Shown: positions 21,540 to 40,600, numbered from the stretch's first letter. The stretch is DNA of 64,000 nt from Alphaproteobacteria bacterium (GCA_963665325.3 OZ224045.1:1760001-1824000); one strand, 5' to 3'. Made by a program: numbers and translations. The notes: generated by a model not told the origin, from the letters alone.

Positions 21540-21947
21540 TCAGCCTGAAGCTGTCTCCAGCGCAATCACACCCTGAAGCGCCGCCAGCCGGCGGTCGAAC
21601 GTATAAAGCGCATCGGCGCCCGACCGCCGCGCGGCGGCCGCGATCATCCGGTCCGCGAAACCGGCGCCGCCCCCGCGATATCCATAGGCCGCGCGGATAA
21701 CGTCATCTCCTGCCTCAAAATGAAGCGCGTCGCCCGAAACCAGCTGTTCCAGCGCGGTCGCAATCCTGTCGCGGGAAAAGCCGTAACTCCGCTCGAGCAC
21801 CCAAACCACCTCCAAGGTGACTTCCCTGCAAACAAAGCCCGGCCGCTCCGGCGTAAGTTGCTCGAGCAGAGAGCGGGCGGCCTCCACCTGCTCCCGGTCG
21901 TCATCGATCAGAAAGCGCAGCAGAATGTTCGTATCGAGCGCAATCAA
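21540..21947 (-). CDS. vapC: VapC-like PIN-domain toxin
   Basis: [12 protein letters not shown]...E...FADRMI...YTFD PIN motif. Confidence 0.88.
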
Positions 21948-22180
21948 CCTTCGCTTGCCCCTTCGGCGATGGCGCGGTCCATATCCTCAAGCGTCACCGG
22001 CGGACCGTCATATGCGAGCATGCCGAAAAGTTCCGAAAGCCGTCTGACAGGCAACAGGCGCACTTCGCCACTATCCATGATGACATAACGCACACGGTCC
22101 CCGGACGAGACCCCGAGCGCCTTCCGGACGGCCTTCGGCAAGGTTGTTTGCCCCTTGGAAGTTATAGCGGAGTCGATCAT
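21944..22180 (-). CDS. AbrB/MazE-family antitoxin
   Basis: ITSKGQTTLPKAVRKALG; overlaps the toxin start. Confidence 0.88.
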   Translation of the reverse strand: MIDSAITSKGQTTLPKAVRKALGVSSGDRVRYVIMDSGEVRLLPVRRLSELFGMLAYDGPPVTLEDMDRAIAEGASEG

Positions 22181-26703: not shown

Positions 26704-27090
26704 GACGTGCTGTCCCTTTCCAGTCCACCCGATATATAGGCCCGATCGTCCGGCGGGGCAGGTGTCCTTCGGAACCGGACATGGCGGTCGGGCGCGACCG
26801 GGCTCTCAGGCTGCGTCCAAATGTTCCAACGTTGGACAGGAAAACATTGCCGTCAGCGGATAAATTGCCGATTCGCCGGATCTCGCGGCGAATGGAGTGT
26901 TTTCATTGAGAAAATTGCGAAGCGCGCCGGCCTTCGAATCATGGATTCCCGATACATGAGACACCGGGCAGCGCACCTGCGGTGCTAAGGCCTTGATGTA
27001 GCGTTTGTTTTTCCTCGTGCAATCGCAGGTTCGGGGCGGAGATGCAAGTGCATTTTCCCCCGCCTGCAACAGAGTGCAGGAGGAATATCC

Positions 27091-28212
27091 ATGGCGAATG
27101 TCCGCCTCAACGAGAGCCGGATCGAGGCTCTCAGGCCCCGCAGGTCGCCCTACGATGTCCGCGATGCAGAGCTGAGAGGCTTCGGCGTCCGCGTCCTGCC
27201 CACGGGCGCCAGGCGGTTCTTCATCCACAGCCAGCATGAGGGCCGGCGTATCTGGAAGACCGTCGGCGACGCTGCCGGCATGGACCTGGAGGAGGCCCGC
27301 CGGCGCGCCACCGAACTGCTGGCCGCCATCCGCCGCGACGAGACGCCGGCGCTTGCCGAAGACAGGCTCTTCGAGACTGTGGCCGACGAGGTCTTCGCCC
27401 GCTACGGGCGGCACTGGAAGCCCGGCACCATGAAGGTCAACCGCAACTATCTCCGCAACACGATCCTTCCCCGGTTCCGGGGACGGAACATCGCCGATAT
27501 CCATCGGCAGGACGTGCAGCGCTGGTTCGCCTCCCTGCACGCCACGCCCGTGGCGGCCGACCGGTCCGCGCCTATCCTTTCCGTCATCATGCGACAGGCC
27601 GAGCTCTACGGTTACCGACCGGAAGGCAGCAATCCCTGCACCGGCATCCGCCGCTACCGGCGCAAGGGACGCGAACGCTTCCTGTCGGAGCCTGAGCTTC
27701 ACCGTCTCGCGCGGGTTCTCGACAGCCATGAGGAGCGCCGTCCATGCAAGGCGGCGTTCATCCGTCTGCTGCTGCTCACCGGCTGCCGCAAGAGCGAGAT
27801 AGCGACCCTCCAGTGGTCCGACTACCGGGAGGGCCGCCTGTTCCTGCGCGACGGCAAGGCGGGGCCCCGGACCGTGTGGCTGTCCTCGCCCGCACGCCAT
27901 GTCCTGGAAGGATTGCCGAGGCAGGGCAAATGGGTCTTCCCCTCGCCGCAGCGCCGGGGGCCGCTCTCCACGGCGATCTTCGAGGCCTTCTGGCACCGGG
28001 TCCGGGAGGAAGCGGAGATTGCCGATGTTCGCCTCCACGATTGCCGTCATACATACGCCAGCATCGCGATCATGCAGGGCGAGAGCGTCACGACGACCGG
28101 GCGGCTGCTCGGCCACAACGATGCGCGAACCACGCTGAAATACACGCACCTGTCCGACCGTTCGGTGCGCGAGGCAACCGATGCCCTCGCCGCCATTCTC
28201 GGGGAGGGCTGA
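27091..28212 (+). CDS. Tyrosine integrase with Arm DNA-binding domain (Int1)
   Basis: LRGFGVRV Arm motif; intact TGCRKSE, GKAG, HDCRH, LGH and KY catalytic residues. Confidence 0.93.
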   Translation: MANVRLNESRIEALRPRRSPYDVRDAELRGFGVRVLPTGARRFFIHSQHEGRRIWKTVGDAAGMDLEEARRRATELLAAIRRDETPALAEDRLFETVADEVFARYGRHWKPGTMKVNRNYLRNTILPRFRGRNIADIHRQDVQRWFASLHATPVAADRSAPILSVIMRQAELYGYRPEGSNPCTGIRRYRRKGRERFLSEPELHRLARVLDSHEERRPCKAAFIRLLLLTGCRKSEIATLQWSDYREGRLFLRDGKAGPRTVWLSSPARHVLEGLPRQGKWVFPSPQRRGPLSTAIFEAFWHRVREEAEIADVRLHDCRHTYASIAIMQGESVTTTGRLLGHNDARTTLKYTHLSDRSVREATDALAAILGEG

Positions 28213-28215
28213 GCG

Positions 28216-29412
28216 GTGCCGAGACGCAGGAGGCTGACCGACGCCGGTATTGCAAGGCTCCGCCCGGAGGCGCGCGAATACACGGTCCGGGATACGGTCG
28301 TCGCCGGTCTCGGCGTGAGGGTTCGCCCCTCCGGCAGCCGGATCTTCATCTACCATCGCAAGACGGATTGCGGCGTGAAGAAGATGTCCTTCGGTCCGGC
28401 GCGGCTGCGCAAGGTGGAGGAGGTGCGCCGCGCCTGTCTTGCGGTGGCGACGGTCGAGGCGGATGAGGGTGAGCGCAAGGCCGCACCGCTGTTCCGGGAT
28501 TTCATCGCCGGGCCCTGGAAAACGGCCCGTCTGGACCGCTGCAAGCCCTCCACGCAACAGAACTACCGCAATCTTCTGAAATACCACCTGCTGCCGGCGT
28601 TCGGCTCCCGGCGCCTCGACCGGATTACCCGCAGCATGGCGCTCGGCTGGTTCGAGAGATGCAGCAGCACCACGCCCGCATACGCCAACCGGGCCTTGGC
28701 CCTGCTCGGACAGATCCTCAACCATGCCATCGCTTGCAGCCATATCGGGACCAATCCGGTGCGCGGCACAAGACGCAATCCCGAGGCCCGGCACACCCGC
28801 TTCCTCGCCCGCGAGGAGATCGCCCGCCTTCACCGCGTCCTCGACCGGTATGCCGAAGGCTTCCGGTCGCAAGCCCGGCAGGCCGATATCGTCCGCCTGC
28901 TGCTGCTCACCGGCTGCCGGAAGAACGAGATCGTTCGTCTCCACAAGGACGAGGCGAAGGGCGACCGGCTGGAACTCAGGGACAGCAAGACGGGGCCGAG
29001 AACCGTCCTGCTGAATGCCCGGGCGCGGGAGGTTGTCGAGCGCCGCATGGCGGAAAGCAACAGCCCCTGGGTATTTCCCTCTGTCCGGGATCCGTCCCGT
29101 CCCCAGGACGACACGTTGCCGCTCTGGTATCGCATCCGGTGCGAGGCCGGCATCGAGGATGTCCGCCTGCACGACCTTCGCCATACGGTAGCCAGCCAGG
29201 CCGTGCTGAACGGCGTTCCCCTGCCGGTTGTCGCCCGACTGCTCGGTCACAGCGACGTGCAGATGACCATGCGCTACGCGCATGTCGGAGACCGCGAGGT
29301 CGAGGCCGCCGCCGAGCGGGTCGGGCAAGTCATCGACACAATCATGAACCGGGGACGCAACTGCTGCCTCAATGGCGGCGATCCCGAGAACCTGTCCGAC
29401 TGCTCTCAGTGA
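28216..29412 (+). CDS. Tyrosine integrase with Arm DNA-binding domain (Int2)
   Basis: GLGVRVRPSG; intact TGCRKNE, SKTG, HDLRH, LGH and RY catalytic residues. Confidence 0.93.
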   Translation: MPRRRRLTDAGIARLRPEAREYTVRDTVVAGLGVRVRPSGSRIFIYHRKTDCGVKKMSFGPARLRKVEEVRRACLAVATVEADEGERKAAPLFRDFIAGPWKTARLDRCKPSTQQNYRNLLKYHLLPAFGSRRLDRITRSMALGWFERCSSTTPAYANRALALLGQILNHAIACSHIGTNPVRGTRRNPEARHTRFLAREEIARLHRVLDRYAEGFRSQARQADIVRLLLLTGCRKNEIVRLHKDEAKGDRLELRDSKTGPRTVLLNARAREVVERRMAESNSPWVFPSVRDPSRPQDDTLPLWYRIRCEAGIEDVRLHDLRHTVASQAVLNGVPLPVVARLLGHSDVQMTMRYAHVGDREVEAAAERVGQVIDTIMNRGRNCCLNGGDPENLSDCSQ

Positions 29413-29475
29413 TCGGAACACCATCGGTGCGTCAGGTGTGAGAACCACGCGCCGAATGGCAGGCTAGGCACTCCG

Positions 29476-30030
29476 TCAAAAGGTCTTCGAAATTCCAAGT
29501 ATGGCACCATGGTTGCGCCAGGCATTGACGGGGATACCGGACCGGTTCCATTCGTAGAAATATCCGATATACGGGGCGAATCCTTGGAGTTGCAGCGCGG
29601 GGGGAGCAGGTTCACCGAGACGCGCGTCTGCCGGTCCGAGCGCGTCTTTCCGAAGAGGGGGTCGCTGCCGTCGTAGCGCCGCCAATGCATGGCCATTCGA
29701 GGCGAGATGGAGAGGCCGTCTGCGAAGGCATGGGAGACCCCGAAAGCGGAGCCGCCAAGCCGGCTGCCGTGACGGTCCTCGCGGGCATCGACATGTTCGA
29801 GGTCGAGTTCGACTGGGAACGTCATCCGGGAGTCGAGTGCGTAGTCAAGGCCGGGCCGCAGGGTAACGGTCCAGCCGTTCAGCCCGGGATGGTCCGGATC
29901 GCGGCGCTCCGCGCTGAGCGCGGCGTCGAGCCGCAAGGCCGGCAACAGGCGCACGCGGCCGCGCACCCAGGGGCCGATCCCGTCGCTGTAGCACTTGCCG
30001 CCTAGCCATCGTCGGCAACGGCTGGCGCAA
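29476..30030 (-). pseudogene. Fragment of a Slam/DUF560-like outer-membrane beta-barrel
   Basis: Beta-strand pattern and RYDGSDPLFGKTRSD; frameshift near 29600; ends NRSGIPVNAW...ISKTF; 5' part missing. Confidence 0.65.
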
Positions 30031-30450
30031 CCCCGTGAAGAAATATTGGTTCGACCACAAGATCGTGGACGGTGTGACGGTCGCTGCGAAGAGCGCCAAC
30101 GAGCGCGAGATCGACCCGGGCAAGCAGGTCGATGCCGCCCGCCAGAAGATCGCCTATTGCCACGCCGACGCCATGCCGCCGCGCCGGCCCGTTACGCCCC
30201 GACACCACCCGCAGGCGGCGAAGACGGGGACGGGGAAGGTGGCGGGCCCGCCGCCAGCCCCTACGGGAAGGGCGGGTGACGTAACCGATCATCGACCGGA
30301 CTCTCGCCGGCCTTGCAACCGGAAAGACCCCGTCAGGCTGGCCCCGGGGTTCAGGTTCGCTGCGCGGAGGTCACGAGATTCGAGGTAACTCGTTCATCGA
30401 TTGCAGGATAGCCTATAGATAGGGCAGGATTGCCTCGGGGGGAAGCGCAA

Positions 30451-31206
30451 ATGGTGGAACATTTTGCCGGCGTGGTCGGCGGGCTCGGGCTGTTTGTCAT
30501 CGGAATGTGGTTCCTCACGGAGAATCTGAAGAAACTGGCGAGCCGGCGGCTGCGTCGAACCGCGCAGCGCCTGACAGGGCATCCCCTGAGCGCCTTCTTC
30601 TGGGGCGGGCTCGCCGGCGGCGCCACCCAGAGCATGACCGGACTGGCCTTTATCGTGGTCAGCATCCTGCGCTCGGGGATGATTACAACGAAGAGCGCAT
30701 TCGCACTCATTCTCGGCGGCGGCGGCGGCGTGACGCTTCTCGTGCTGGTCGTCACCTTCGACGTCAGGATTGTTGCACTGTTCGTGCTCGGCCTTTCCGG
30801 CTTTTGCCTGACCAGCAAGTCCCTGTCGAAATACCGCCGGGCCGCGGCGGCGTTCCTCGGCGGCGCCATGATTGTTTTCGGGCTGACCCTGCTGAAGGAG
30901 TCAGCGGCGCCGCTGGCCGACCAGCCCTGGTTCCGGGATATGATGGCGGGGGCCGGGACTTCGCCGCTGCTTGCGTTCCTGGTCGCGACCGGGCTGACAG
31001 CCGCCGTGCAGTCTTCAAGCACGGTATCCATATTCGGCATCAGCCTTTCCGCTGCCGGGGTCCTCACCATAGACCAGACCATAATGGTCATTTACGGCAC
31101 CTTCATCGGGTCGAGCGCCGTCATGTACATCCTCTCGGCGAACCTGACCGGCCGGTCCCGCCAGGTCTCCATGTATCTGGTGTGCCTGACCTATCAATTT
31201 TCATGA
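30451..31206 (+). pseudogene. Na/Pi cotransporter family, 3'-truncated
   Basis: GGLGLFVIGM, ATQS and AVQSSS motifs; reading frame enters the inverted-repeat end at 31179 and stops at 31206. Confidence 0.85.
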
Positions 31207-31716
31207 CTATAGGAACACCTTTTGGTTGAAGCGCTGCTTTCCTCGAAGGGTAAGGAACAGTAGGGGATTGCGGGGGTCAATGCAAGTCTCTTGTGTCAAG
31301 ATAATGCTGTAGGTTAATTGGATGTCTTGGGCATTGCACTTGCAAATTGGGGATTTTGTAGGTCTGGACAGGAGCACCGCACACGGTGCCGAAAGCACCG
31401 GGTGCGGTGTCTTCGAGTGCTGACCATGGGACCATGGCGCCCGGCATGGTGTCCATCGTGGCGCCCATGGGCGCTGACCGTGGGACCATGATGCAAACAC
31501 GCGGTTTCATGGTAGCGCCCGGGCTTCATGTCGAGGAAGCGCATCGGGTTCCCCTCCGGGTGTCGTGTTGTGGGTGCTGGCCTTGTGGGGTCGCGGATGA
31601 TAATAGACGACACCATGGGGCGCCATGGTGACATGGATACTTCATTGATGCGGTGCTCCTGTGTTTCACCAGGAAACAGCCATGTCGATCCTGTGTTTCA
31701 TGGTAGGAGAAAGCTC

Positions 31717-32037
31717 GTGACGGCGAGTGATGGCAGGAAGAGGCCGCGCTCGGTGATGGCGACCGACAGCGACTGGCGCCTGATCCGCAGACGCGCGGAC
31801 AAGGCCGGAATTTCGACATCCGAGTTCCTTGTTGGCCGCGGGCTCGCGCCTGCGGCGGCGGCGGCGGAGAGTGCGGACGACCTGCCCCTTGCCGTGAAGC
31901 GCCGGGCGGCGGTGGACCTGCGCCTCCTGGTGCTGGCCGAGCGACTGCGGTTCGAAGCCGGGGGGCGAGGTGGCGTCTGGCAGCGGCTTGTGGAGGAAGC
32001 GGAAGCCTCGGCGGCGGCCGACGAGGGGGAGGGCTGA
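31717..32037 (+). CDS. MobC/RHH-like protein A
   Basis: AGGAGA RBS + GTG; RSVMATDSDWRLIRRRADKAGISTSEFLV has a ribbon-helix-helix pattern. Confidence 0.65.
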   Translation: MTASDGRKRPRSVMATDSDWRLIRRRADKAGISTSEFLVGRGLAPAAAAAESADDLPLAVKRRAAVDLRLLVLAERLRFEAGGRGGVWQRLVEEAEASAAADEGEG

Positions 32038-32038
32038 T

Positions 32039-32404
32039 ATGGGCGCGACCCGTCAATACTGCATCACCTGCCCGCGTTCGGACTGGCGGGCGGTCCAGGA
32101 CCTTGCGCAGGCGGCGGGGATGAAGACCTCGCCCTTCATCCTGAGGGAGGTGCTGGGCGAGGACAGCCGGATGGCGCTGACGGGCGGGGAGCAGCGCGCA
32201 CTGCATGACCGGGTGCTGCGCATGGCGTCGCTGGGCGAAGCGCTTGTGGAGCCCTTGGCCGGCAGCGGCGTGACGCTCGGCGAGGCGCTGGCGTTCCTCG
32301 CCAGCGAACTCCGGTCCCGGCAGCAAAGGGAGGCGAAAAGGACACGGGTCCGCCCGTTGCGCACCGCCGGGGCGCCGGACCTGTTCGGGGAGGGGCTGCC
32401 GTGA
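32039..32404 (+). CDS. MobC/RHH-like protein B
   Basis: YCITCPRSDWRAVQDLAQAAGMKTSPFIL; paralog of A; ORF intact in both arms. Confidence 0.65.
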   Translation: MGATRQYCITCPRSDWRAVQDLAQAAGMKTSPFILREVLGEDSRMALTGGEQRALHDRVLRMASLGEALVEPLAGSGVTLGEALAFLASELRSRQQREAKRTRVRPLRTAGAPDLFGEGLP

Positions 32405-32832
32405 AGCCACGCAAGGCGCCTGAAGAGCGCTCTGTCTCGCATTCGATCTCCTGCACGCCGCTGCAATGGGCGCGGATGCGTGAGCTTGCGGAAGGGGCCG
32501 GCATGCGGACCTCGCCCTGGATCGTGGGCCGTGTGCTGAAGCGCGAGGGGTTCGGCGGCGCCGGCCATGCGCTGGAGCTGGACGGGGAGCAGCAGCGGGC
32601 CATGCGCGATGCGGCGGCGGACGCGGAGGCGGCGCTGTCGCTCCTGTCAGCGAATTCCAGCGAGGCGTCTGCCGGTCTTCGCGAGACGGTGGCGCTGCTG
32701 TTCGAGGCGCGTCTGGCCGAAATGGCGCGCGAAGGACGCCGGGAGGCGATGGAAACCCTGCTGGCGGCGGTCGTCGGCCCGGAGCGCGCGGCTGCTATCG
32801 CCGGCCGCGTTCGGGCGCGGCAGTACGGATGA
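32401..32832 (+). CDS. MobC/RHH-like protein C
   Basis: HSISCTPLQWARMRELAEGAGMRTSPWIV; GTGA overlap with B. Confidence 0.65.
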   Translation: MKPRKAPEERSVSHSISCTPLQWARMRELAEGAGMRTSPWIVGRVLKREGFGGAGHALELDGEQQRAMRDAAADAEAALSLLSANSSEASAGLRETVALLFEARLAEMAREGRREAMETLLAAVVGPERAAAIAGRVRARQYG

Positions 32833-32875
32833 CAGATGGCGTGCGGGACGAGTTATCCTGTAGGAACTTGAAAGG

Positions 32876-32919
32876 TCACACTATAGGAATGCCATGTAAT
32901 TCATGGCATTCAAGTGTGA
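32876..32919. other. AT-rich hairpin (oriT- or terminator-like)
   Basis: TCACACT-ATAG-GAATGCCATG-TAATT-CATGGCATTC-A-AGTGTGA. Confidence 0.6.
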
Positions 32920-33436
32920 TAGACAGGTCTTTTACGGTCATATGGATAATGTAGAACCTACAGTAAGAAATCTGTGTGAAATGAGTTGCCGTCCGGTCGC
33001 AGCCTTTCCGGCATGCGGATTCTCGCGGATCTGCATTCCGGTATCGTCAACCGTGCGGCGCCTGTTCGCGACGGTCAGGAAGCGCACTCGGTTGCTGAAG
33101 TTCGGCGGCGCCGCTGGCAGGCGAGGCGCGCGGCCCCGAGACGGCCGGAGCGGCGGTCGATACGGCATGGTGCGAGATGAGGCTTGACGGCGGTCCGGCG
33201 AAATGGCGCGGCCGCGCCCCGGTCCCACGGTCAGCGCCCATGGGCGCCATGTCCGGCGGCCCGGTCCCACAAGCGGGGCCCATGGCGCCGCAACATTCAG
33301 CGCCCGTGGGAGCCACGCCCGGCTCCCGGTCGCGTGGTCCGCGCCCGTGGCGCCCCGGTCCCGGGACTGGCGCCCACGGATATGGCGGCCGATGAGGGCT
33401 CGTGGCAGGATCGGGAGACCGTGGCGGGAGGCGAAT

Positions 33437-34231
33437 GTGGCGGAGCGGTTCATGTTCGATGCGGCCGGCATCGAGGCGCTGGCGCCCGGCGACCGGGAGC
33501 GGCGCGTCTGGGACGAGGCGCTGAAGGGGTTCGGGGTTCGTGTCCGGCCGTCGGGGACGAAGTCGTGGATCGTCAATGCCAGCACGACAGGGGCGGACGG
33601 GAGGGTGCGCAGCCGGCGGATCACGCTCGGCCAGTGCGGGGAGATGAGCCTGGAGGAGGCGCGGGCTGAGGCGCGGAAGCTCTTGGGCGCTGGCGTCGGG
33701 GCGGCCGCCGTCGAAGGCCAGCCGGCTGCGGGCATGGATGACCGGGGCTTGCGGGATCGCGGCGAGGGCATCGAGGATGGTGCGCCGAAATCGGCCGCCG
33801 CTGTCGGGAGAGCGGCGGTGGAGACGGGCGGGGATGCGGACCGGCCCGGCGGGGACCCGGCGGGTGGTCTGGCGAAGACGCTGGACGGCATTCGCGGCGG
33901 CGTGGACAGGATCGAGGCGTGGAACGCCAGGACGGACGCGCAAATGGAGCTGCTGTCGAGCGCGGTGGCGGTGAGCGCCATGGACCGCCGGCGGGGGCGC
34001 CGGCGTCTGGCGGTCTGGCTTCTGGCGATCGTGGTTGCGGCGGCGGTCGGGCTCGCCGGCGGCGCGTTTGTCCAGAGCCGCTATCCGGTCCTGCCCCGGG
34101 ATGATCCGACCCTGGGCTGGAAGGACCATGTCTGGAATCATTACGGTCAGGCGTTCAAGGATTGCTTCGAACGGGCCCGGAACGAGCAGTCGGGTCGTGC
34201 GAAGTGCGAGATCACCGTGCGCGCCAGGTGA
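33437..34231 (+). CDS. Integrase Arm-domain protein fused to a TM anchor (no catalytic domain)
   Basis: GGAGG + GTG; WDEALKGFGVRVRPSGTKSW...ITLG...SLEEARAEA, then a linker, RRRGRRR + TM helix and a Cys-pair tail. Confidence 0.75.
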   Translation: MAERFMFDAAGIEALAPGDRERRVWDEALKGFGVRVRPSGTKSWIVNASTTGADGRVRSRRITLGQCGEMSLEEARAEARKLLGAGVGAAAVEGQPAAGMDDRGLRDRGEGIEDGAPKSAAAVGRAAVETGGDADRPGGDPAGGLAKTLDGIRGGVDRIEAWNARTDAQMELLSSAVAVSAMDRRRGRRRLAVWLLAIVVAAAVGLAGGAFVQSRYPVLPRDDPTLGWKDHVWNHYGQAFKDCFERARNEQSGRAKCEITVRAR

Positions 34232-34261
34232 AGGCCGGCCGTGCTCCCGGCGCCCGGCCTC

Positions 34262-34540
34262 CTATCCGGAGATCAATGCCGCCGCGTTCAAACGCATCGT
34301 CACGATATGAAATATCATCCCCACAATGGACAACCAGCAGATCAGGAGTCCGGTTTGCGGATGAATGAACCACGGCCCGACCACCGGGACCGGGCGGTGG
34401 TGCGAGCAGTCCGGGCAGTCGCACCGGTCCCCGGCTGGCAACCGGTCGCGTTCGAGCCGGTCGATCCTGCCGCGCAGGTCGGCGGCCTCGGCGCGCAGCC
34501 GTTCGAGTTCGCCGTCTTCGCTTTCGGGTCTGTCGTTCAT
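34262..34540 (-). CDS. Coiled-coil/TM micro-protein, array copy 3
   Basis: ELERLRAEAADLR, CDCPDC and a hydrophobic helix. Confidence 0.6.
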   Translation of the reverse strand: MNDRPESEDGELERLRAEAADLRGRIDRLERDRLPAGDRCDCPDCSHHRPVPVVGPWFIHPQTGLLICWLSIVGMIFHIVTMRLNAAALISG

Positions 34541-34658
34541 GCAAGCGGCCTCTCCGGGTTGTACATGGTGGCGGTCATTCCGTGCTTCTGCGCCGCCCGA
34601 TATCGCGTCGGGGCGGACACGGCGCGTCCTCTCCCGGGCATGTCCGGCGAGGGGCCTC

Positions 34659-34907
34659 TCATTTGAGCGCAGCTGCGACGCACATCGTCATGGCCGCTGC
34701 CAGCTGCAGGACCGCCATGATGAACAGGAATGCGGTCAGCGGGTTGAGGAGCGGCGGCTCCGGGACGGGCGAGCAGTCCGGGCAGCCGCACGATTCTTCC
34801 GCTGGCGCCCGGTCGCATTCGAGCCCGCGGAGCTTGCCGCGAAGGGCCGCCACCTCGGTGCGCAGCCGTTCTAGGTCGCCGTCTTCGTTTTCGGGCCTGT
34901 CGGTCAT
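34659..34907 (-). CDS. Coiled-coil/TM micro-protein, array copy 2
   Basis: DLERLRTEVAALR, CGCPDC and a hydrophobic helix. Confidence 0.6.
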   Translation of the reverse strand: MTDRPENEDGDLERLRTEVAALRGKLRGLECDRAPAEESCGCPDCSPVPEPPLLNPLTAFLFIMAVLQLAAAMTMCVAAALK

Positions 34908-35215
34908 GCAGGGCTCTGCGGGCCGTTCATGCTGCCGGTCGTCCCGTGCTTCCGCCGCGCCCGGTAGTGCGCCGGGGCGGACACGGCGCATCCTCTGCCG
35001 GAAATGACCGGCGACCGGCTTTTCCATTCGCAGGTCTGCAATGCCGCCAGTATGCAGAGCACGGCGACACCCACCACGGTCGGCGCGTTCAGCACCGGCA
35101 TGCTGCGGGCCTCCCGCAGTTCGTCCCGCAGCCCGGCGTTCTCCTCGCGCAGGTCGGCGACCTCGGCGCGGAGCCGTTCGATTTCGCGGCTCCGGTAGTC
35201 CTCTCCGGCGTTCAT
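34904..35215 (-). CDS. Coiled-coil/TM micro-protein, array copy 1
   Basis: EIERLRAEVADLR and a hydrophobic helix; reads through into the spacer. Confidence 0.55.
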   Translation of the reverse strand: MNAGEDYRSREIERLRAEVADLREENAGLRDELREARSMPVLNAPTVVGVAVLCILAALQTCEWKSRSPVISGRGCAVSAPAHYRARRKHGTTGSMNGPQSPA

Positions 35216-35252
35216 GCGGGGGTCTCCGGGACGGATGCTGAGTTGCCCGGGC

Positions 35253-36254
35253 TCATGCAGCGGGCTCCCGTGCTCCGGCGGCGGCAGACGGCGGCGGCTC
35301 TCCGCTCTCCGGCGCGGGGTAGGAGATACGGAAGGCGGGGTCGATACGGTCGCTGGCGGGAAGGCGGTAGTAAAGCAGGGTCGCGGCGAGGTTGGTGTGC
35401 CCGAGCCAGTCGCGGACCGCCTCGGGCCGCGCGCCCTCGCGAAGCGCGGTCGCCGCAGCCGTCGCTCTCAGCGAATGCGCGCAGAGCCCCTCGACCTCGC
35501 GCGTGAGCCCCGCACGGTCTGCATGATGGCGCACGACATTGCTGTAGACCGAGCCCGGATCGAGCGCGCGGGCGAGCCGGCCGCCGCCGCGATTGTTGGC
35601 CACCGGACGGAACAGCGGCCCGGAGCGGTCCCGTCCATGGCCCGCCCGGTGGAGATAGGCCCCGATCCGTTGCTCCGTCTCGGGATGCAGCGCGGCAATG
35701 CGCATCCGGCCCCGGTTGCCCGCGACCTTCAGGCAGGGCCGGCCGTCGATACTGACGAGATCGCCCACGCCGAGTCCGCAGAGTTCCTCCCGCGTCAGCC
35801 CCTGGCAGAGCATGACGGCGAGGATGGCGCGGTCGCGCAGGCCCTTGACCGTGCCTTCGGGCGGCGCGTCGAGGAGCCGGCGCGCCTGCTCCCCGGTCAG
35901 CACCGGGGCCGCGTTCGGGCCCTCTTCGTCAACGGGCCGCTCGACGCCCCGGACCGGGTTGGCCACCACTGCCCCTTTGGCCAGCAGTTCGTCGAACAGC
36001 GATGACAGGGCCGAGAGCTTGCGGCGCACACTCGCCGGCCTGAGTGGGCGCGCAAGCAGCGCCTCGCGCCAGGCTTCCACCCGGTCCGGCGCGGCCTCCC
36101 GCAGCCCCCCGGGTTCCGAAAGGCCCGCAAAGCTCATGAACTCCGCAACGTCGCGCAGATAGCCCCTGCGATTGTGGCCGCTCTCGATCCCGGCGAACCA
36201 CACCTCCCTCGGCGGCATCGCGGCGAGGCGCTGCGGGGGTCTGTCCTCGGGCAT
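35253..36254 (-). CDS. XerC/TnpI-like tyrosine recombinase with degenerate active site
   Basis: SVRRKLSALSSLF, NPV, RDRAIL, HSLR, LGH and Y present; GLTREEL (R->T) and GNRGR (K->N) are degenerate. Confidence 0.85.
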   Translation of the reverse strand: MPEDRPPQRLAAMPPREVWFAGIESGHNRRGYLRDVAEFMSFAGLSEPGGLREAAPDRVEAWREALLARPLRPASVRRKLSALSSLFDELLAKGAVVANPVRGVERPVDEEGPNAAPVLTGEQARRLLDAPPEGTVKGLRDRAILAVMLCQGLTREELCGLGVGDLVSIDGRPCLKVAGNRGRMRIAALHPETEQRIGAYLHRAGHGRDRSGPLFRPVANNRGGGRLARALDPGSVYSNVVRHHADRAGLTREVEGLCAHSLRATAAATALREGARPEAVRDWLGHTNLAATLLYYRLPASDRIDPAFRISYPAPESGEPPPSAAAGAREPAA

Positions 36255-36289
36255 GGCGGTTCCTGCGGTGGAGGGGTTGTCCTTATAAC

Positions 36290-36304
36290 GATAAGAACGT
36301 TATC
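36290..36304. other. Possible recombinase core site upstream of the recombinase gene
   Basis: Inverted repeat GATAA-GAACG-TTATC in an AT-rich patch. Confidence 0.35.
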
Positions 36305-36461
36305 ATATTCTATGGCATCGGGCAAGTGACGTTGCCCGCACAGAATGCTGGAGGGAGGCCGGGGCCTTGAGACTGCTCTGCACGCATTTCGACTACGGGT
36401 TCCGCCTCCACGGCCGCGAGGGCGGCCTCAACGGAACGCGCTGGATCTTCGAGCCGCTTCC

Positions 36462-36583
36462 TGCGGAATATCACCAATGTAGCCGGCGAATATCGTTCAA
36501 CGTAGCCGGCCGATTTCACCCAAAGTAGCCACTCAGTTTCAGCAAAGTAGCCACCCGGAGCGAAGCGACGCGATCACGATGTT
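36462..36583 (+). mobile_element. Solo IS21-family-like terminal remnant
   Basis: Begins TGCG; four GTAGCC-containing repeats at 36479/36502/36525/36547 (23, 23, 22 bp spacing); no transposase follows. Confidence 0.6.
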
Positions 36584-36948
36584 GCCAGCAGGGTTTCCAT
36601 CTCCTCCCGGCGTCCCTCGCGCGCCATTTCGGCCAGACGCGCCTCGAACAGCAGCGCCACCGTCTCGCGAAGACCGGCAGACGCCTCGTCGGAATTCGCT
36701 GACAGGAGCGACAGCGCCGCCTCCGCGTCCGCCGCCGCATTGCGCATGGCCCGCTGCTGCCCCCCGTCCAGCTCCAGCGCATGGCCGGCGGCTCCGAACC
36801 CCTCGCGCTTCAGCACCCGGCCCACGATCCAGGGCGAGGTCCGCATGCCGGCCCCTTCCGCAAGCTCCCGCATCCGCGCCCATTGCAGCGGCGTACACGA
36901 GATCGAATGCGAGACCGAGCGCTCTTCCGGCGCCTTGCGCGGCTTCAT
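36574..36948 (-). CDS. RHH-like protein C', 3'-truncated
   Basis: Near-identical to 32401..32832 but ends ETLLATS. Confidence 0.6.
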   Translation of the reverse strand: MKPRKAPEERSVSHSISCTPLQWARMRELAEGAGMRTSPWIVGRVLKREGFGAAGHALELDGGQQRAMRNAAADAEAALSLLSANSDEASAGLRETVALLFEARLAEMAREGRREEMETLLATS

Positions 36949-37310
36949 CGCGGCCCCTCCCCGAACAGGTCCGGCACCCCGGCGGTGCGCGACGGGCGGG
37001 CCCGTGTCCTTTTCGCCTCCCTCCGCTGCCGGGACCGGAGCTCGCTGCCGAGGAACGCCAGCGCCTCGCCGGGCGTCACGCCGCTGCCGGCCAAGGGCTC
37101 CACAAGCGCTTCGCCCAGCGACGCCATGCGCAGCACCCGGTCGTGCAGTGCGCGCTGCTCCCCGCCCGTCAGCGCCATCCGGCTGTCCTCGCCCAGCACC
37201 TCCCTCAGGATGAAGGGCGAGGTCTTCATCCCCGCCGCCTGCGCAAGGTCCTGGACCGCCCGCCAGTCCGAACGCGGGCATGTAATGCAGTATTGACGGG
37301 TCGCGCCCAT
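36945..37310 (-). CDS. RHH-like protein B'
   Basis: Near-identical to 32039..32404. Confidence 0.65.
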   Translation of the reverse strand: MGATRQYCITCPRSDWRAVQDLAQAAGMKTSPFILREVLGEDSRMALTGGEQRALHDRVLRMASLGEALVEPLAGSGVTPGEALAFLGSELRSRQRREAKRTRARPSRTAGVPDLFGEGPR

Positions 37311-37311
37311 A

Positions 37312-37632
37312 TCAGCCCTCTCCCTCGTCGGCCGCCACCGAGGCTTCCGCTTCCTCCACCAGACGCCGCCAGACGCCGCCCCGCCCCCCGGCTTCGAACC
37401 GCAGCCGCTCGGCCAGCACCAGGAGGCGCAGGTCCGCCGTCGCCCGGCGCTTCACGGCAAGGGGCAGGTCATCCGCACTCTCCGCCGCCGCCTCCGCAGG
37501 CGCGAGACCGCGGCCGACAAGGAACTCGGATGTCGAAATTCCGGCCTTGTCCGCGCGCCTGCGGATCAGGCGCCAGTCGCTGTCGGTCGCCATCACCGAG
37601 CGCGGCCTCTTCCTGCCGTCATCAGCCGTCAC
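37312..37632 (-). CDS. RHH-like protein A'
   Basis: Near-identical to 31717..32037. Confidence 0.65.
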   Translation of the reverse strand: MTADDGRKRPRSVMATDSDWRLIRRRADKAGISTSEFLVGRGLAPAEAAAESADDLPLAVKRRATADLRLLVLAERLRFEAGGRGGVWRRLVEEAEASVAADEGEG

Positions 37633-38378
37633 GAGCTTTCTCCTACCATGAAACACAGGATCAACATGGCTGTTCCCCGGCGAAACACAGAAGCGCCGCA
37701 TCAATGAAGTATCCATGTCGCCATCGCGCCCCATGGTGTCGTCCATTATCATCCGCGACCCCACAAGGCCAGCACCCGGAAAACGACGCCGGAGGGGAAC
37801 CCGATGCGCATCCAGGACAGGAGGTCCGGGCGCTACCATGAAACCGCGTGTTTGCACCACGGTCCCACAGTCAGCGCCCACGGGCGCCATGATGGACACC
37901 ATGCCGGGCGCCACGGTCTCACGATCAGCACCCGAAGACACCGCATCCGGTGCTTTCGGCACCGCGTGCGGTGCTCCTGTCCAGCCCCACAAAATCCCCA
38001 ATTTGCAAATGCAATGCCCACGATATTCAATTATCCTACAACATAATCTTGACACAAGGGGCTTGCTTTGACCCCCGTAATCCCCTACTGTTACTCTTCC
38101 TACGAGGAAAACAGCGTTTCAACCAAAAGGTGTTCCTATAGTCATGAAAATTGATAGGTCAGGCACACCGGGCAGCAGTTTGAAGTTGCGGCCCGCTGCC
38201 GTGGGATCGTGCGAGTAGCCGAATTGTTGAGCTGTCGGGCAGCGCCGCGCGCGTTGCGGGCAACGCACTCCCGGGAGCGCATCGGCAGAGACCCGCACAG
38301 TCTGCCGGGCCTGAGGCGCAGGCACCGGGCGGGGCTAAGCCTCGCCAATACGCGGTTTGAATTCGGAGAGTTCATATT

Positions 38379-39713
38379 TTGCCGTTTCATATTTCGCCGG
38401 GGACCCTCGCGCTCGCAGGGGCCGCCACGCTTGTTGCAATGTCCATCGCCAGCCTCTCCGCTGCACAGGCCGGTCCGGCCGAGCGGCTCTGGGAGGACCT
38501 GCAGCTTCAGGCGGTCGGCTGCGGAACGGCGGGCGACGGGTCCATGTCGACGGGTGCGCGTTGCCTGTTCGGCAATGGCCTGAATTTCCTTCTCGAAGAA
38601 AGCATGCGCCTGGCGGGCGAATATGGAGGAAAGGCCTTCGGACAACGGTTCCGGGTGGTTGGGAAGCCGGCATTCGCGCCGGCTTCGGGCGGGACCGGGT
38701 CGACGGCCGATCTTGACGTTGTGGTTCCTTTTGCCGGGGCGGAGCCGTCGGTGGCGGAAAAGCCCTCGGGATCGGCGCTGTTCCTCCAGCAGGGCGTTAC
38801 CCACTGGCAGGACGGGCTCGGGACACCGCGCAACGACCTGCGTTACGGCCTCGTTTACCGTTTCCGGGTTTCGGACAGGCCGGATGCGGACATCCTCGGG
38901 CTCTCCGTGCTCCAACTGCACAACGCCGAGCGGCAGCACCGGGTCCTCGTCTCCGGGATCGACTATTCCGGGAGATGGGGGAGCGGGTCGCTCCGTCATT
39001 TCATGCCGACCACAGGCTGGCGTTCGAACCGCCGGGGCCGGGAGGAGCGGGCGCTTGGCGGCACGGAGTTCTCGACGCGCCTGGACCTCACATCGACCCT
39101 GGACATGAATGCGACCGGCTATCGCCGGGAGTCCGGGGACGGTTCCGGGCACCGGAACGAAGGTGTGCGCATGGGGTTCGCCTGGCGCCCGCATCCCTGG
39201 CTGCAGCTGGGCGCCGGCTACGACCGTTACAGCGGGGGCGACGGCGCGGTGGCGTTCCGCATCGGGTTCAGGATGCCGCTCGGGAGCCCGTCGAAACCGC
39301 CTCGGTGGGAAGGGCTGGGCGTGGCGGCCGGCGGCGCCGCACCGGGCGATTCTGAGCTTTGGCGGCCGGTCGAGGGAGACAGCCGGATCCTGACCGCCAC
39401 ACGCGAGAGTGTCTCCGACCTCGTCGACGAGGCGGAGGTCCGGTTCCTGCAGGACACCGTCGAGAGCGGCGACTCGATCCTGCTCGAAGTCGTGCTTCCG
39501 TCCGCTGCGCCGGAGGACATCCGGGTCGAGGTCCGTCTCGTGCCCGGCAGCGGGGCCAATCCCGCCGTGCCCGGCGAGGATTTCGTCGATGAGCCCGTGG
39601 CGCTCACGATCCCCGCGGGTGCGGTGAGTGGCACAGTTGCCATTCAACTCCTGCGGAACGGCGACCAGCAGGAAAACCGGAGCCTGGGCGCTACGGTTGC
39701 ACTGGTCTCGTGA
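38379..39713 (+). CDS. Inverse autotransporter (intimin/invasin-type barrel) with one Calx-beta-like domain
   Basis: Signal peptide; barrel motifs FLQQG..RND..GLVYR, QHR..GIDY, PTTGW..EERALGG and WRPVE; C-terminal AVPGEDF..LTIPAG...TVAIQLL. Confidence 0.65.
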   Translation: MPFHISPGTLALAGAATLVAMSIASLSAAQAGPAERLWEDLQLQAVGCGTAGDGSMSTGARCLFGNGLNFLLEESMRLAGEYGGKAFGQRFRVVGKPAFAPASGGTGSTADLDVVVPFAGAEPSVAEKPSGSALFLQQGVTHWQDGLGTPRNDLRYGLVYRFRVSDRPDADILGLSVLQLHNAERQHRVLVSGIDYSGRWGSGSLRHFMPTTGWRSNRRGREERALGGTEFSTRLDLTSTLDMNATGYRRESGDGSGHRNEGVRMGFAWRPHPWLQLGAGYDRYSGGDGAVAFRIGFRMPLGSPSKPPRWEGLGVAAGGAAPGDSELWRPVEGDSRILTATRESVSDLVDEAEVRFLQDTVESGDSILLEVVLPSAAPEDIRVEVRLVPGSGANPAVPGEDFVDEPVALTIPAGAVSGTVAIQLLRNGDQQENRSLGATVALVS

Positions 39714-39784
39714 CCGTGCCCCGGCCGGCCGGAGCGGCGGCGCCGGAAACAGGGCGGGCGCATTCGCGCAGATGGGATAAGGCC

Positions 39785-40600
39785 ATGTCCAGCAGCAGAT
39801 TCGTGCCGACCGTTTACCTGATTGTGGCAGTCGCAGCGGCATCAGCGGTCGGGCTGTCCTCCTGTGGCGGCGGAGGCGCGTCCCGAACCGGCATAGTAGC
39901 GCCCTCGTCGGGGAGCCGCGCGGCCCAAACGGTGATTACGCCGCCGGGAAACCGCGCGCCGCAGTCGGTGGGTACCATTCCCGTCCAAGCCCTGACTACG
40001 GGCGAGAACGCCGCCATAGTCGATGTAACGCCATACTTTCGGGATCCTGAAAACGACCGACTGACATATTTGGCGGCATCTAGTCGGCCGCAGGTGATTT
40101 TGGCCCGCATGTTGGGCAGTACGATGACTCTAAACCCGGTCTCGTCCGGCGTGGCGACGATCACGGTGACTGCCAGCGACGGCAATACCGATGCCACGCA
40201 AACCGTCGTCGCCACGGTGGCAGAGCCGGGGGGTGGGCAGACGGCGACGCAAGAGGAGATTACGCATGCCGAGACGCAAGGTAGCAACACCGGGCAAACG
40301 AAGACCGCGGAACCGGAGAACGCGCTAACCGGAATTGGAGTGTTGGCGCAAGACTCGCAAGGGCGCGAGACCTATATGCGCGTCAGGATGGAACCGGCGG
40401 GCGCTCAGTGGGCCCGCGTAAACTTCGAAATCGAGCCCTACGAAGCAGGCAATATGTGCTGCTATCAGTCATTCGCGGACGATGTCTATATCAAATTCAC
40501 TTGCGCGGGCGGCTACAGTGGCGGCGCGACCGTCAAAATTATCGTCGACGATCACTACGGCCACAGGTTCGAGAAACCCATTTCGTTCACTTGCCGATAA
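39785..40600 (+). CDS. Lipoprotein with cadherin/Ig-like domain
   Basis: Lipobox LSSC-GGGG; NRAP..G.IP...YFRDPENDRLTY...ATITVTASDG. Confidence 0.7.
   Translation: MSSSRFVPTVYLIVAVAAASAVGLSSCGGGGASRTGIVAPSSGSRAAQTVITPPGNRAPQSVGTIPVQALTTGENAAIVDVTPYFRDPENDRLTYLAASSRPQVILARMLGSTMTLNPVSSGVATITVTASDGNTDATQTVVATVAEPGGGQTATQEEITHAETQGSNTGQTKTAEPENALTGIGVLAQDSQGRETYMRVRMEPAGAQWARVNFEIEPYEAGNMCCYQSFADDVYIKFTCAGGYSGGATVKIIVDDHYGHRFEKPISFTCR

Follow-up and report, generated by a model that had tools for sequence, protein, structure and literature searches.

A probable defective, composite member of an apparently undescribed family of integrative mobilizable elements with tandem tyrosine integrases

Introduction

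What kind of mobile element lies behind a stretch of bacterial DNA that opens with two integrase genes and closes on small ribbon-helix-helix (RHH) genes, and what does it recognise? The question is raised by an 11-kb segment (26961..38176) of a 64,000-nt window, by which we mean the whole stretch of DNA that was analysed, from an Alphaproteobacteria bacterium (GCA_963665325.3 OZ224045.1:1760001-1824000). The host genome, G000, comprises 5.58 Mb in 5 contigs and was compared with the 16 other genomes of a 17-genome genus set. We consider it probable that the segment is a defective, fused member of a family of integrative mobilizable elements (IMEs) abundant in the genus; that its two tyrosine integrases, Int1 and Int2, act jointly on ACACC plus a five-base word (5-mer) that each element carries and that drifts; and that this core comes from nic-targeting integrases.

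The segment is an insertion bounded by a short repeat

An initial annotation had proposed a 12-bp direct repeat, ACACCGGGCAGC, at 26961 and 38165, with a box, TTTTCCTCGT, inside both ends in inverted orientation. Both are present, and the ends read as follows.

26961..26972, + strand: attL core, ACACC (26961-26965) followed by the variable 5-mer GGGCA (26966-26970); the two further bases of the 12-bp match agree by chance
38165..38176, + strand: attR core of the outer element, ACACC and GGGCA (then GC)
26973..26985, + strand: conserved hairpin GCACC-TGC-GGTGC, of the same motif family as the hairpin in local MOBF origin-of-transfer (oriT) candidates
27009..27018, + strand: putative arm-type box TTTTCCTCGT, of a type that mostly co-varies with the box at the partner right end
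38102..38111, - strand: putative arm-type box, the right-end counterpart of TTTTCCTCGT, inverted relative to 27009

Alone, the 12-mer is weak, at least two matches with at most one mismatch arising in 13 of 100 shuffles. We accept it as an insertion boundary because a genome of the same genus, G011, matches the predicted empty site letter for letter, with one copy of the 12-mer read straight through; there the left-flank match stops, and the right-flank match starts, on the identical 12 bases. The interval 26961..38176 is a genuine inserted mobile segment, and the insertion site of this outer copy is intergenic. G011 supplies the sole empty site available, since the right flank is present in only 1 of the 16 other genus genomes; the target region is therefore itself accessory. 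The left junction is bridged by a contig of run X9, which may be the source sample. As for the length of the repeat, all 12 bases match, as reported, but the conserved repeat is 10 bp (ACACC and five bases): across 29 end pairs of the family, identity at positions 1-7 after ACACC is 28, 27, 29, 29, 28, 9 and 15 of 29 and so ends after the fifth base, position 6 being identical in only nine.

The family and its relaxase

The ends of this segment recur. G000 contains 15 left and 13 right ends, and the left-end pattern gave 120 matches in 14 of the 17 genus genomes against 1 for a reversed control; Int1 homologues (E 1e-60, a count that takes in more distant clades) occur in 15 of the 16 other genomes. 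There are up to about 20 left ends per genome, paired elements span 8-72 kb, and many lie in genes and in other mobile elements. Beyond the genus the clade is patchy, since only 1 of 400 other genomes of the class (G303, with 11 matches) holds the pattern, and viral contigs gave 0 matches. Because the G303 copies share flanks, they add no test of inheritance; one facing pair there differs at position 1. In 79 GTDB loci, many of which coincide with genus-set loci so that the counts overlap and are not independent, Int2 directly follows 69 of 72 full Int1 genes with room for it, and ACAC precedes 56 of 59 left-end motifs when it is kept outside the search pattern. The GTDB hosts are mostly alphaproteobacterial metagenome-assembled genomes (MAGs), together with three Chloroflexota MAGs that could be binning errors.

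Profile scans of 21 open reading frames (ORFs) of the window against Pfam gave zero matches to relaxase, type IV secretion system (T4SS), capsid or Rep families, as the initial annotation had stated, and no TrwC match lies between the ends. Comparison with sisters tells a different story for the family. Clustering of 16 G000 segments yielded three common gene groups: the RHH genes, the integrases and a protein of up to 1,800 aa that is a TrwC/MobF relaxase-helicase (MobF above cut-off in one G000 member and one G011 sister). Two G011 elements with the window's arm run through the RHH genes R1-R3, a gene with an Arm domain and a transmembrane (TM) segment, small ORFs, a Xer-like gene, a MOBF relaxase, cargo, Int2 and Int1; in general, an intact member has Int1-Int2 at its left end and three NikA-like RHH genes in its right arm, and cargo of varying content and a MOBF relaxase-helicase lie in between. 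Members at G000:C5:244039-263097 and C4:999723-1030539 are intact. Of 31 paired elements in four genomes, 18 contain a TrwC match, 2 of which probably belong to nested elements, as judged by length and context. Family members thus have their own integrases, an att-flanked insertion and their own relaxase, the features of IMEs. This copy is a decayed member that lacks its own relaxase, and may still be able to excise. No tra genes were found in the gene calls of simple family members.

The absence of a relaxase had been put forward as a design, the family moving in trans or only within the cell and this copy being a normal member. Such a view would suit the 13 of 31 paired copies that lack a TrwC match, as well as the relaxase-less sisters at two G005 sites (13.6 kb, left ends 100% identical), which, having unlike flanks, indicate that relaxase-less copies still move. 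It sits poorly with the MOBF relaxase found directly past this copy's breakpoint in its two closest full sisters, and with the two right arms, cut R3 and insertion-sequence (IS) end of the copy itself. We regard this view as improbable; since a MOBF/TrwC relaxase is found in intact sisters, we class the family with the IMEs and not as relaxase-free by design.

Members also meet other mobile elements. A complete F-type tra set with a MobF relaxase is nested in contig C3 of G000, where an F-type conjugative element of 52 kb (G000:C3:1011950-1064510; L036-L038), which has a different integrase pair of its own, lies inside a member's Int1 near codon 255. Int1 is cut near the same codon in G011, G016 and G303, and other copies are cut near codons 198 and 325. 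Conversely, a family element in G011 (G011:C1:545488-604856) lies in the traB/traV region of an F-type cluster, with a CRISPR-Cas-like block and many IS copies in the gene calls.

A variable word shared by partner ends

What do these elements recognise? We collected 75 left and 44 right ends from seven genomes, five of which have right ends; two left anchors were placed by position, and removal of one right end without a GTGT anchor left 43. The core consists of ACACC and five variable bases, in flanks without consensus beyond ACAC[C], and the 75 left ends hold 53 different 5-mers; the family uses 50 distinct sites. When ends were paired with their nearest facing counterparts at most 120 kb apart, 32 of the 43 anchored right ends had a left end, and in 25 of these 32 pairs the 5-mer is shared exactly, compared with a permutation mean of 2.9 and maximum of 11 (10,000 permutations). 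These cross-genome pairs bear out the earlier proposal that the arm terminus is paired with the integrase end and, together with the G011 empty site, that the two are attL and attR of a low-specificity integrative family. From subfamily to subfamily the inner boxes at partner ends mostly change together (there is at least one exception), which is how arm-type sites should behave, and we suppose the boxes to be such sites.

The remaining pairs differ at one base (4), at two (2) or at four (1, with ends 119 kb apart and probably no true pair). The six pairs that differ at one or two bases have eight mismatches between them, seven of which are at positions 1-3; three of these pairs retain a sister's word at the right end, and one cross-contig G011 case retains it at the left end. 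One mismatched copy lies at G000:C1:1508065-1530685. The pattern fits strand exchange over a short overlap that mostly needs to match, with heteroduplexes that would be sorted by replication or repair, as demonstrated for GInt islands. Ends with the same 5-mer also occur on different contigs of G000 (C4:951560 with C5:332842, and C4:1089403 with C2:83093), pointing to rearrangement between elements or assembly breaks.

Nearest sisters at different sites show 1.0 mismatches at 97% identity or above (4 pairs), 2.29 at 92% or above (17) and 2.67 at 85% or above (27), against 3.61 expected of random 5-mers; 0 of 5,000 draws were as low as 2.29, the kin pairs not being independent. These values suggest that the 5-mer is partly inherited between sisters. 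A different account would make it a target duplication created at insertion, with ACACC a plain preference and nothing carried by the element, and both the identical ends and the wealth of 5-mers are what this account predicts, as are near-identical sisters that sometimes differ at two positions. It does not predict that sisters at unrelated sites share the 5-mer above chance, nor the six pairs with 1-2 mismatches, three of which keep the sister's word at the right end; moreover, tyrosine recombinases exchange strands and fill no gaps. A duplication therefore seems unlikely, and we favour a word carried by the element. G000 has 7,911 ACACC sites, with a median of 6 per observed 5-mer, and each element would thus have a handful to a few dozen targets.

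Gene content and composite history of this copy

The interior of the segment contains the following features.

27091..28212, + strand: Int1, Arm-type tyrosine integrase, 373 aa (R233 K256 H316 R319 H342 Y351)
28216..29412, + strand: Int2, paralogue of Int1, 398 aa, 37% identical (R235 K258 H319 R322 H345 Y354)
29426..30016, - strand: Slam (SlipAM) 3' fragment, a frameshifted cargo remnant, 91% alike to a full-length copy in G000:C3
30451..31183, + strand: 5' part of a Na+/Pi cotransporter gene, cut at the start of arm I; a paralogue continues uninterrupted through the same word
31174..31183, - strand: attR core of a second, inverted sister element, ACACC and AGATA
31179..32765, + strand: arm I, the second element's right-end leader and RHH triplet (R1 31717-32037, R2 32039-32404, R3 32401-32832)
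33437..34231, + strand: Arm-DNA-binding domain, linker and hydrophobic segment without catalytic domain (the Arm/TM gene), a regular part of this subfamily's arm
34262..35215, - strand: three small paralogous ORFs (92, 82 and 103 aa), conserved in the G011 sisters
35253..36254, - strand: XerC/D-like simple tyrosine recombinase, 333 aa, under every curated Xer cut-off, 92-93% identical in the G011 sisters
36460..36583, no strand assigned: IS21-type end, 124 bp, 86% to the end of an istA/istB-like element in G000:C3
36584..38169, - strand: arm II, the outer element's right arm (truncated R3 36574-36948, R2 36945-37310, R1 37312-37632, leader 37633-38164)

Both integrases are intact, as had been noted, each with the catalytic set R-K-H-R-H-Y, and they are adjacent, 3 bp apart. 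Int1 passes the arm-domain profile PF13356 (36.7 vs 27 bits), which we take to be DUF4102, and Int2 has no match. The right leader, given earlier as structured and about 540 bp, measures 537 bp; folding of 519 nt (37651-38169) gave a z of -3.35 as RNA (1 of 100 shuffles as good) and -4.45 as DNA (0 of 100). The leader has zero matches in Rfam, and sigma-70 promoter and terminator scans remained at chance level. The three neighbouring genes are RHH-like as described, but in the window the likeness is weak, extending to NikA for R1 only and below cut-off; among their orthologues 3 of 7 scanned genes exceed the cut-off, and the top PDB match of the family profile is NikA (E 0.01). Where a single RHH arm had been described there are two (31179-32765 and 36584-38169), inverted and 93.7% alike over 1587 nt, each with its own terminus and RHH triplet, R3 of arm II stopping at the IS21-type end. 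The original gene list also lacked the Xer-like gene (a third recombinase), the Arm/TM gene, the truncated Na+/Pi gene and the Slam fragment. The motif TGCAAGTGCA is exact at 27043 and 31335-31344, as reported; arm II has the variant TGCAAATGCA at 38004.

How did two arms come to lie in one segment? The interval 31179-36460 is colinear with a G011 sister (88.8% over 5,360 nt) and departs from it exactly at the left edge of the IS21-type end; past that break the sister continues into a 1,419-aa MobF relaxase, and arm II begins at the right edge. At the other side, the ten bases at which arm I begins are crossed without a break in a Na+/Pi paralogue, this junction is bridged with 0 differences by a contig of run X12, and the arm I 5-mer, AGATA, has no partner among the 15 left ends in G000. 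The simplest history is that of a damaged fusion of two sister elements with deletion of a relaxase. Element A would have inserted at ACACC-GGGCA; a sister, B, would then have entered in inverted orientation at ACACC-AGATA within A's Na+/Pi cargo gene; and an IS21-linked deletion would have joined B's arm to A's arm, at the cost of B's relaxase, cargo and integrases and of A's interior up to R3. An ORF check on the Na+/Pi paralogue gave 533 aa for the single-copy join, but 554 aa for a shifted join; likewise, the genome is GC-rich, and for 9 reconstructed empty sites the frames in shifted controls were as long as the restored ones.

Since the inverted repeat is real and encloses the Xer-like gene, 31179-38169 could also be taken for an element in its own right, bounded by 1.6-kb terminal inverted repeats, with a Xer-like invertase or resolvase at its centre. 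G011, however, has the arm, Arm/TM gene, small ORFs and Xer-like gene as one ordinary right arm with no second arm, and the two arms here end in different 5-mers. Already largely refuted, this idea deserves almost no credence beside a fusion of two sisters.

Several smaller features were noted. The Arm/TM protein (33437-34231) has an acidic linker and a C-terminal part similar to small genes that adjoin relaxases elsewhere in the family; 5' of its gene, at 33189-33379, GC-rich repeats form a partial copy of the arm leader (about 60 nt, 75-76%). The Xer-like protein (35253-36254) has H-R, H and Y and reads QGLTREE, a region in which the first catalytic arginine of tyrosine recombinases usually lies one place earlier. 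Beside the right end, 38379-40600 holds an inverse-autotransporter-like gene and an Ig-domain gene, and at 21944-22180 a small AbrB-like ORF, by eye possibly an antitoxin, adjoins a lower-GC stretch.

Relation to conjugative nic sites

Where might the ACACC core have come from? Plasmid searches found tandem relatives in Shewanella and Vibrio (38-39% for Int1, 34-37% for Int2). In S. oneidensis MR-1 and S. baltica pS22301 the integrase pair heads inserts of 11 and 9.3 kb, respectively, that are flanked by ACACC-CCACG, and pS19501 and pS22303 have one copy of ACACC-CCACG, then a hairpin, a small ORF and traI. This word and its neighbours match plasmid F (NC_002483). According to its oriT oligonucleotides, the F nic lies at the edge of ACACC, and the opposite strand reads, from nic onward, ACACC, a short spacer and then a hairpin, an order shared with the left end of the family (PMC3074121). 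For the Vibrio relatives only a left end was seen, with no matching right end within the stretch examined. Two twin-integrase inserts in an F-like nic site (L242:11834-22845, on the S. oneidensis MR-1 megaplasmid, and L244:11833-21143), for which empty plasmids exist, carry bacteriocin-export or restriction-modification cargo and have a right end repeated as degenerate copies.

The same arrangement is found within the genus. In G000, ACAC-N4-10-GCAYC-N2-5-GRTGC has 24 matches (against 1 for the reversed pattern). Of these, 14 are left ends of the family, 8 lie no more than about 5 kb from relaxase matches and 2 are unexplained; positions up to 6 kb from a TrwC match make up 4.6% of the genome. 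A further clade of integrase pairs, C, in G011 and G005 (43-45% to Int1), has left ends of the short-spacer nic-like form, and in G011 a 4.2-kb clade-C cassette splits a nic-like site upstream of the relaxase of an integrative and conjugative element (ICE). G005 holds at least 10 such pairs, 97-98% alike (loci L250-L265), each with a short-spacer nic-like left end; five matching right-end sites were seen there, one with RHH genes next to it. Thus the two nearest integrase-pair clades, S and C, sit in F-type nic sites in the same register. A 45-protein tree (midpoint root, one search, four S rows with skewed composition) gave (C,(S,A)) for both integrases, A being the clade of the window's element, with A+S support of 98/93 and 100/99, Int1-type monophyly of 98/95 and Int2-type of 88/79. 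Because both neighbouring clades include nic-targeters, the simplest reading is that clade A lost nic specificity.

TrwC-type strand transfer is itself a route of integration, and the MOBF relaxase might integrate the elements at nic-like sites, with the integrases serving only to excise or resolve. The edge of ACACC is the exact F nic position, and the left end resembles local oriT candidates. Yet no relaxase was annotated or detected between the ends of the nic-targeting S and C cassettes examined, and a pair of G000 sisters, 100% identical, have the same right anchor and unlike left anchors (ACACG vs ACAAG), the outcome to be expected of an integrase-type exchange in which the target supplies the left anchor. 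Relaxase-driven integration is accordingly very improbable in our view, and we retain the integrases as the likely agents.

A related idea concerns transfer: the attachment core may also be the origin of transfer. A nic-parasitic integrase duo would have retained the word and hairpin of nic at its own end, acquired a MOBF relaxase able to nick at that point, and lost all specificity beyond ACACC and the carried 5-mer. The left end is the only nic-like site common to seven segments scanned. The hairpin spacer is 3-4 nt in local oriT candidates vs a variable 5-9 nt at family left ends, and upstream of 10 family relaxases and 1 ICE relaxase no oriT conserved beyond close sisters was found, a nic-like pattern giving two unrelated matches. 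We offer this only as a tentative possibility. Should it hold, excision would build a working oriT, the structured right arm would be the leading region, and mismatched insertions would reprogram the targets of descendants.

Proposed mechanism

In the scheme that we favour, Int1 and Int2 would act jointly, in the manner of XerC/XerD. Structure prediction gave an Int1-Int2 contact of 0.61 vs 0.00 for the best control, with runs agreeing in at least 86% of contacts and partner pLDDT of at least 81; the contact mark is attained by 51 of 78 solved pairs and 2 of 108 mismatched pairs, and the Int1-Int2 pair may attain it by its likeness to solved recombinase oligomers. Excision would yield a circle whose junction reads right arm-ACACC-N5-hairpin, and a target would need only ACACC and a 5-mer matching the element's own. 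The region of strand exchange is probably 6-7 bp, including the last one or two bases of ACACC. Occasional insertion with 1-2 mismatches would leave unlike ends, and because excision from such a copy can alter the carried word, specificity would drift. The core would descend from integrases that target MOBF nic sites; the RHH proteins, given their likeness to NikA, may be relaxosome helpers or regulators; and transfer would proceed via F-type T4SS helpers of the same genome.

Several observations weigh against this scheme. Seven of the 32 nearest pairs mismatch, one of them at 4 positions, and 11 of the 43 anchored right ends lack a facing left end at distances of up to 120 kb. Left ends that are 99-100% identical can differ at 2 of the 5 positions (2 of 4 pairs at 97% or above), more change than strict homology predicts. 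The copies without a TrwC match belong here as well, and no excisionase was identified. Right ends beyond G000 were searched only around RHH or arm matches, which makes their linkage to RHH genes circular. Only parsimony speaks for the order of events proposed for this copy. Finally, no circle or empty-site joint was seen among 15 of 40 joints listed for four contig sets, in which rare forms are lost.

Comparison with known systems

The initial annotation called the gene set unrecognisable from described families, which was too strong. MTnPi1-3 of Prevotella intermedia, whose other genes are unrelated, are IMEs that encode a relaxase and two tandem tyrosine integrases, both suspected to be necessary. 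They occur in several copies per genome and insert with low specificity, at an 11-bp att of which five bases are free (PMC4755523; PMC5704250), and resemble the family in all of these traits. They differ in that their integrases lack significant mutual homology, whereas ours are 37% identical paralogues; their word, TT[A/G]C-N5-AA, has consensus on both sides of N5, ours on one; and they have a primase-family gene and a Bacteroidetes host, in contrast to the MOBF relaxase and three RHH genes that by description set our family apart. No primase was found in clusters common to at least three elements, only part of which was scanned against Pfam. Membership in MTnPi thus fails on integrase homology, word and primase-family gene.

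The streptococcal IME_oriT are tyrosine-integrase IMEs that lie in the nic stem-loop of other elements' oriT, some elsewhere (PMC7563843; PMC5704250). Their oriT-nic insertion resembles that of sister clades S and C; their MobT/Rep_trans relaxase, integrase with excisionase and Firmicutes hosts do not fit, nor does a clade found at many unrelated sites. With an intergenic copy, 50 sites and a MOBF relaxase, and nic insertion only in its sister clades, our family does not belong to IME_oriT. In GInt (ginABCD), heteroduplex repair changes attI and shifts specificity, which it is said to tighten (PMC5385486). Like our family, GInt has at one end an operon that encodes several tyrosine recombinases, and it has repeats of 10-11 bp and drifting att sites; it has three recombinases plus GinD and high site specificity, and the available text (PMC5385486) mentions no relaxase, whereas our left end has two integrases only, which argues against membership.

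SE (PMC9345347) and Tn554-like pairs (PMC3414803) also have two tyrosine recombinases at one end and carry over a short donor sequence. SE reads intA-CDS2-intB-CDS4 with 19-bp terminal inverted repeats and, at the ends, unlike 6-mers; here Int1 and Int2 are 3 bp apart and the ends share a direct core. Tn554-like pairs combine one 611-828 aa recombinase with TnpC, whereas the family's integrases are both under 400 aa and adjacent, with ends that usually match; a pair of 373 and 398 aa is neither that nor the recombinase trio of RIT elements. A phage-inducible chromosomal island (PICI) or other phage satellite was rejected too, no primase, replication or packaging genes being found in the 21 ORFs with Pfam and the left-end pattern being absent from viral contigs. 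The IntSXT subgroup of Arm-type recombinases has an N-terminal DUF4102 arm domain (PMC8138268).

A search of the full-text literature, without most subscription papers and supplements, returned no description of this gene set. The available text of a preprint on oriT-only islands in six clinical species (10.64898/2026.01.13.699239) makes no mention of 'two integrases', and that of PMC10484663 none of MOBF. Relaxase-only IMEs with MobF, and any in Proteobacteria, are absent from the available parts of a 2017 IME review (PMC5704250); later surveys may include such elements. In its workings the family is like an IME of the MTnPi type, its att logic is like that of GInt, and its relatives are like IME_oriT. 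Tandem-integrase IMEs, oriT-targeting IMEs and drifting att sites are each already known separately (MTnPi, IME_oriT and GInt), and the family is apparently an undescribed IME family.

Significance

This copy is broken, and its value is chiefly as a record of nesting and decay; the interest lies in the family and in how it chooses targets. Genome change in this lineage owes much to the family, and its link to nic sites suggests how an oriT parasite could become a free-ranging IME. Integration by a pair of integrases that take their target from a 5-base word carried in the DNA would be a simple, natural form of DNA-programmed integration, comparable with the overlap reprogramming reported for the phage mv4 integrase. 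The presence of a relative on the Shewanella oneidensis MR-1 megaplasmid makes this idea testable.

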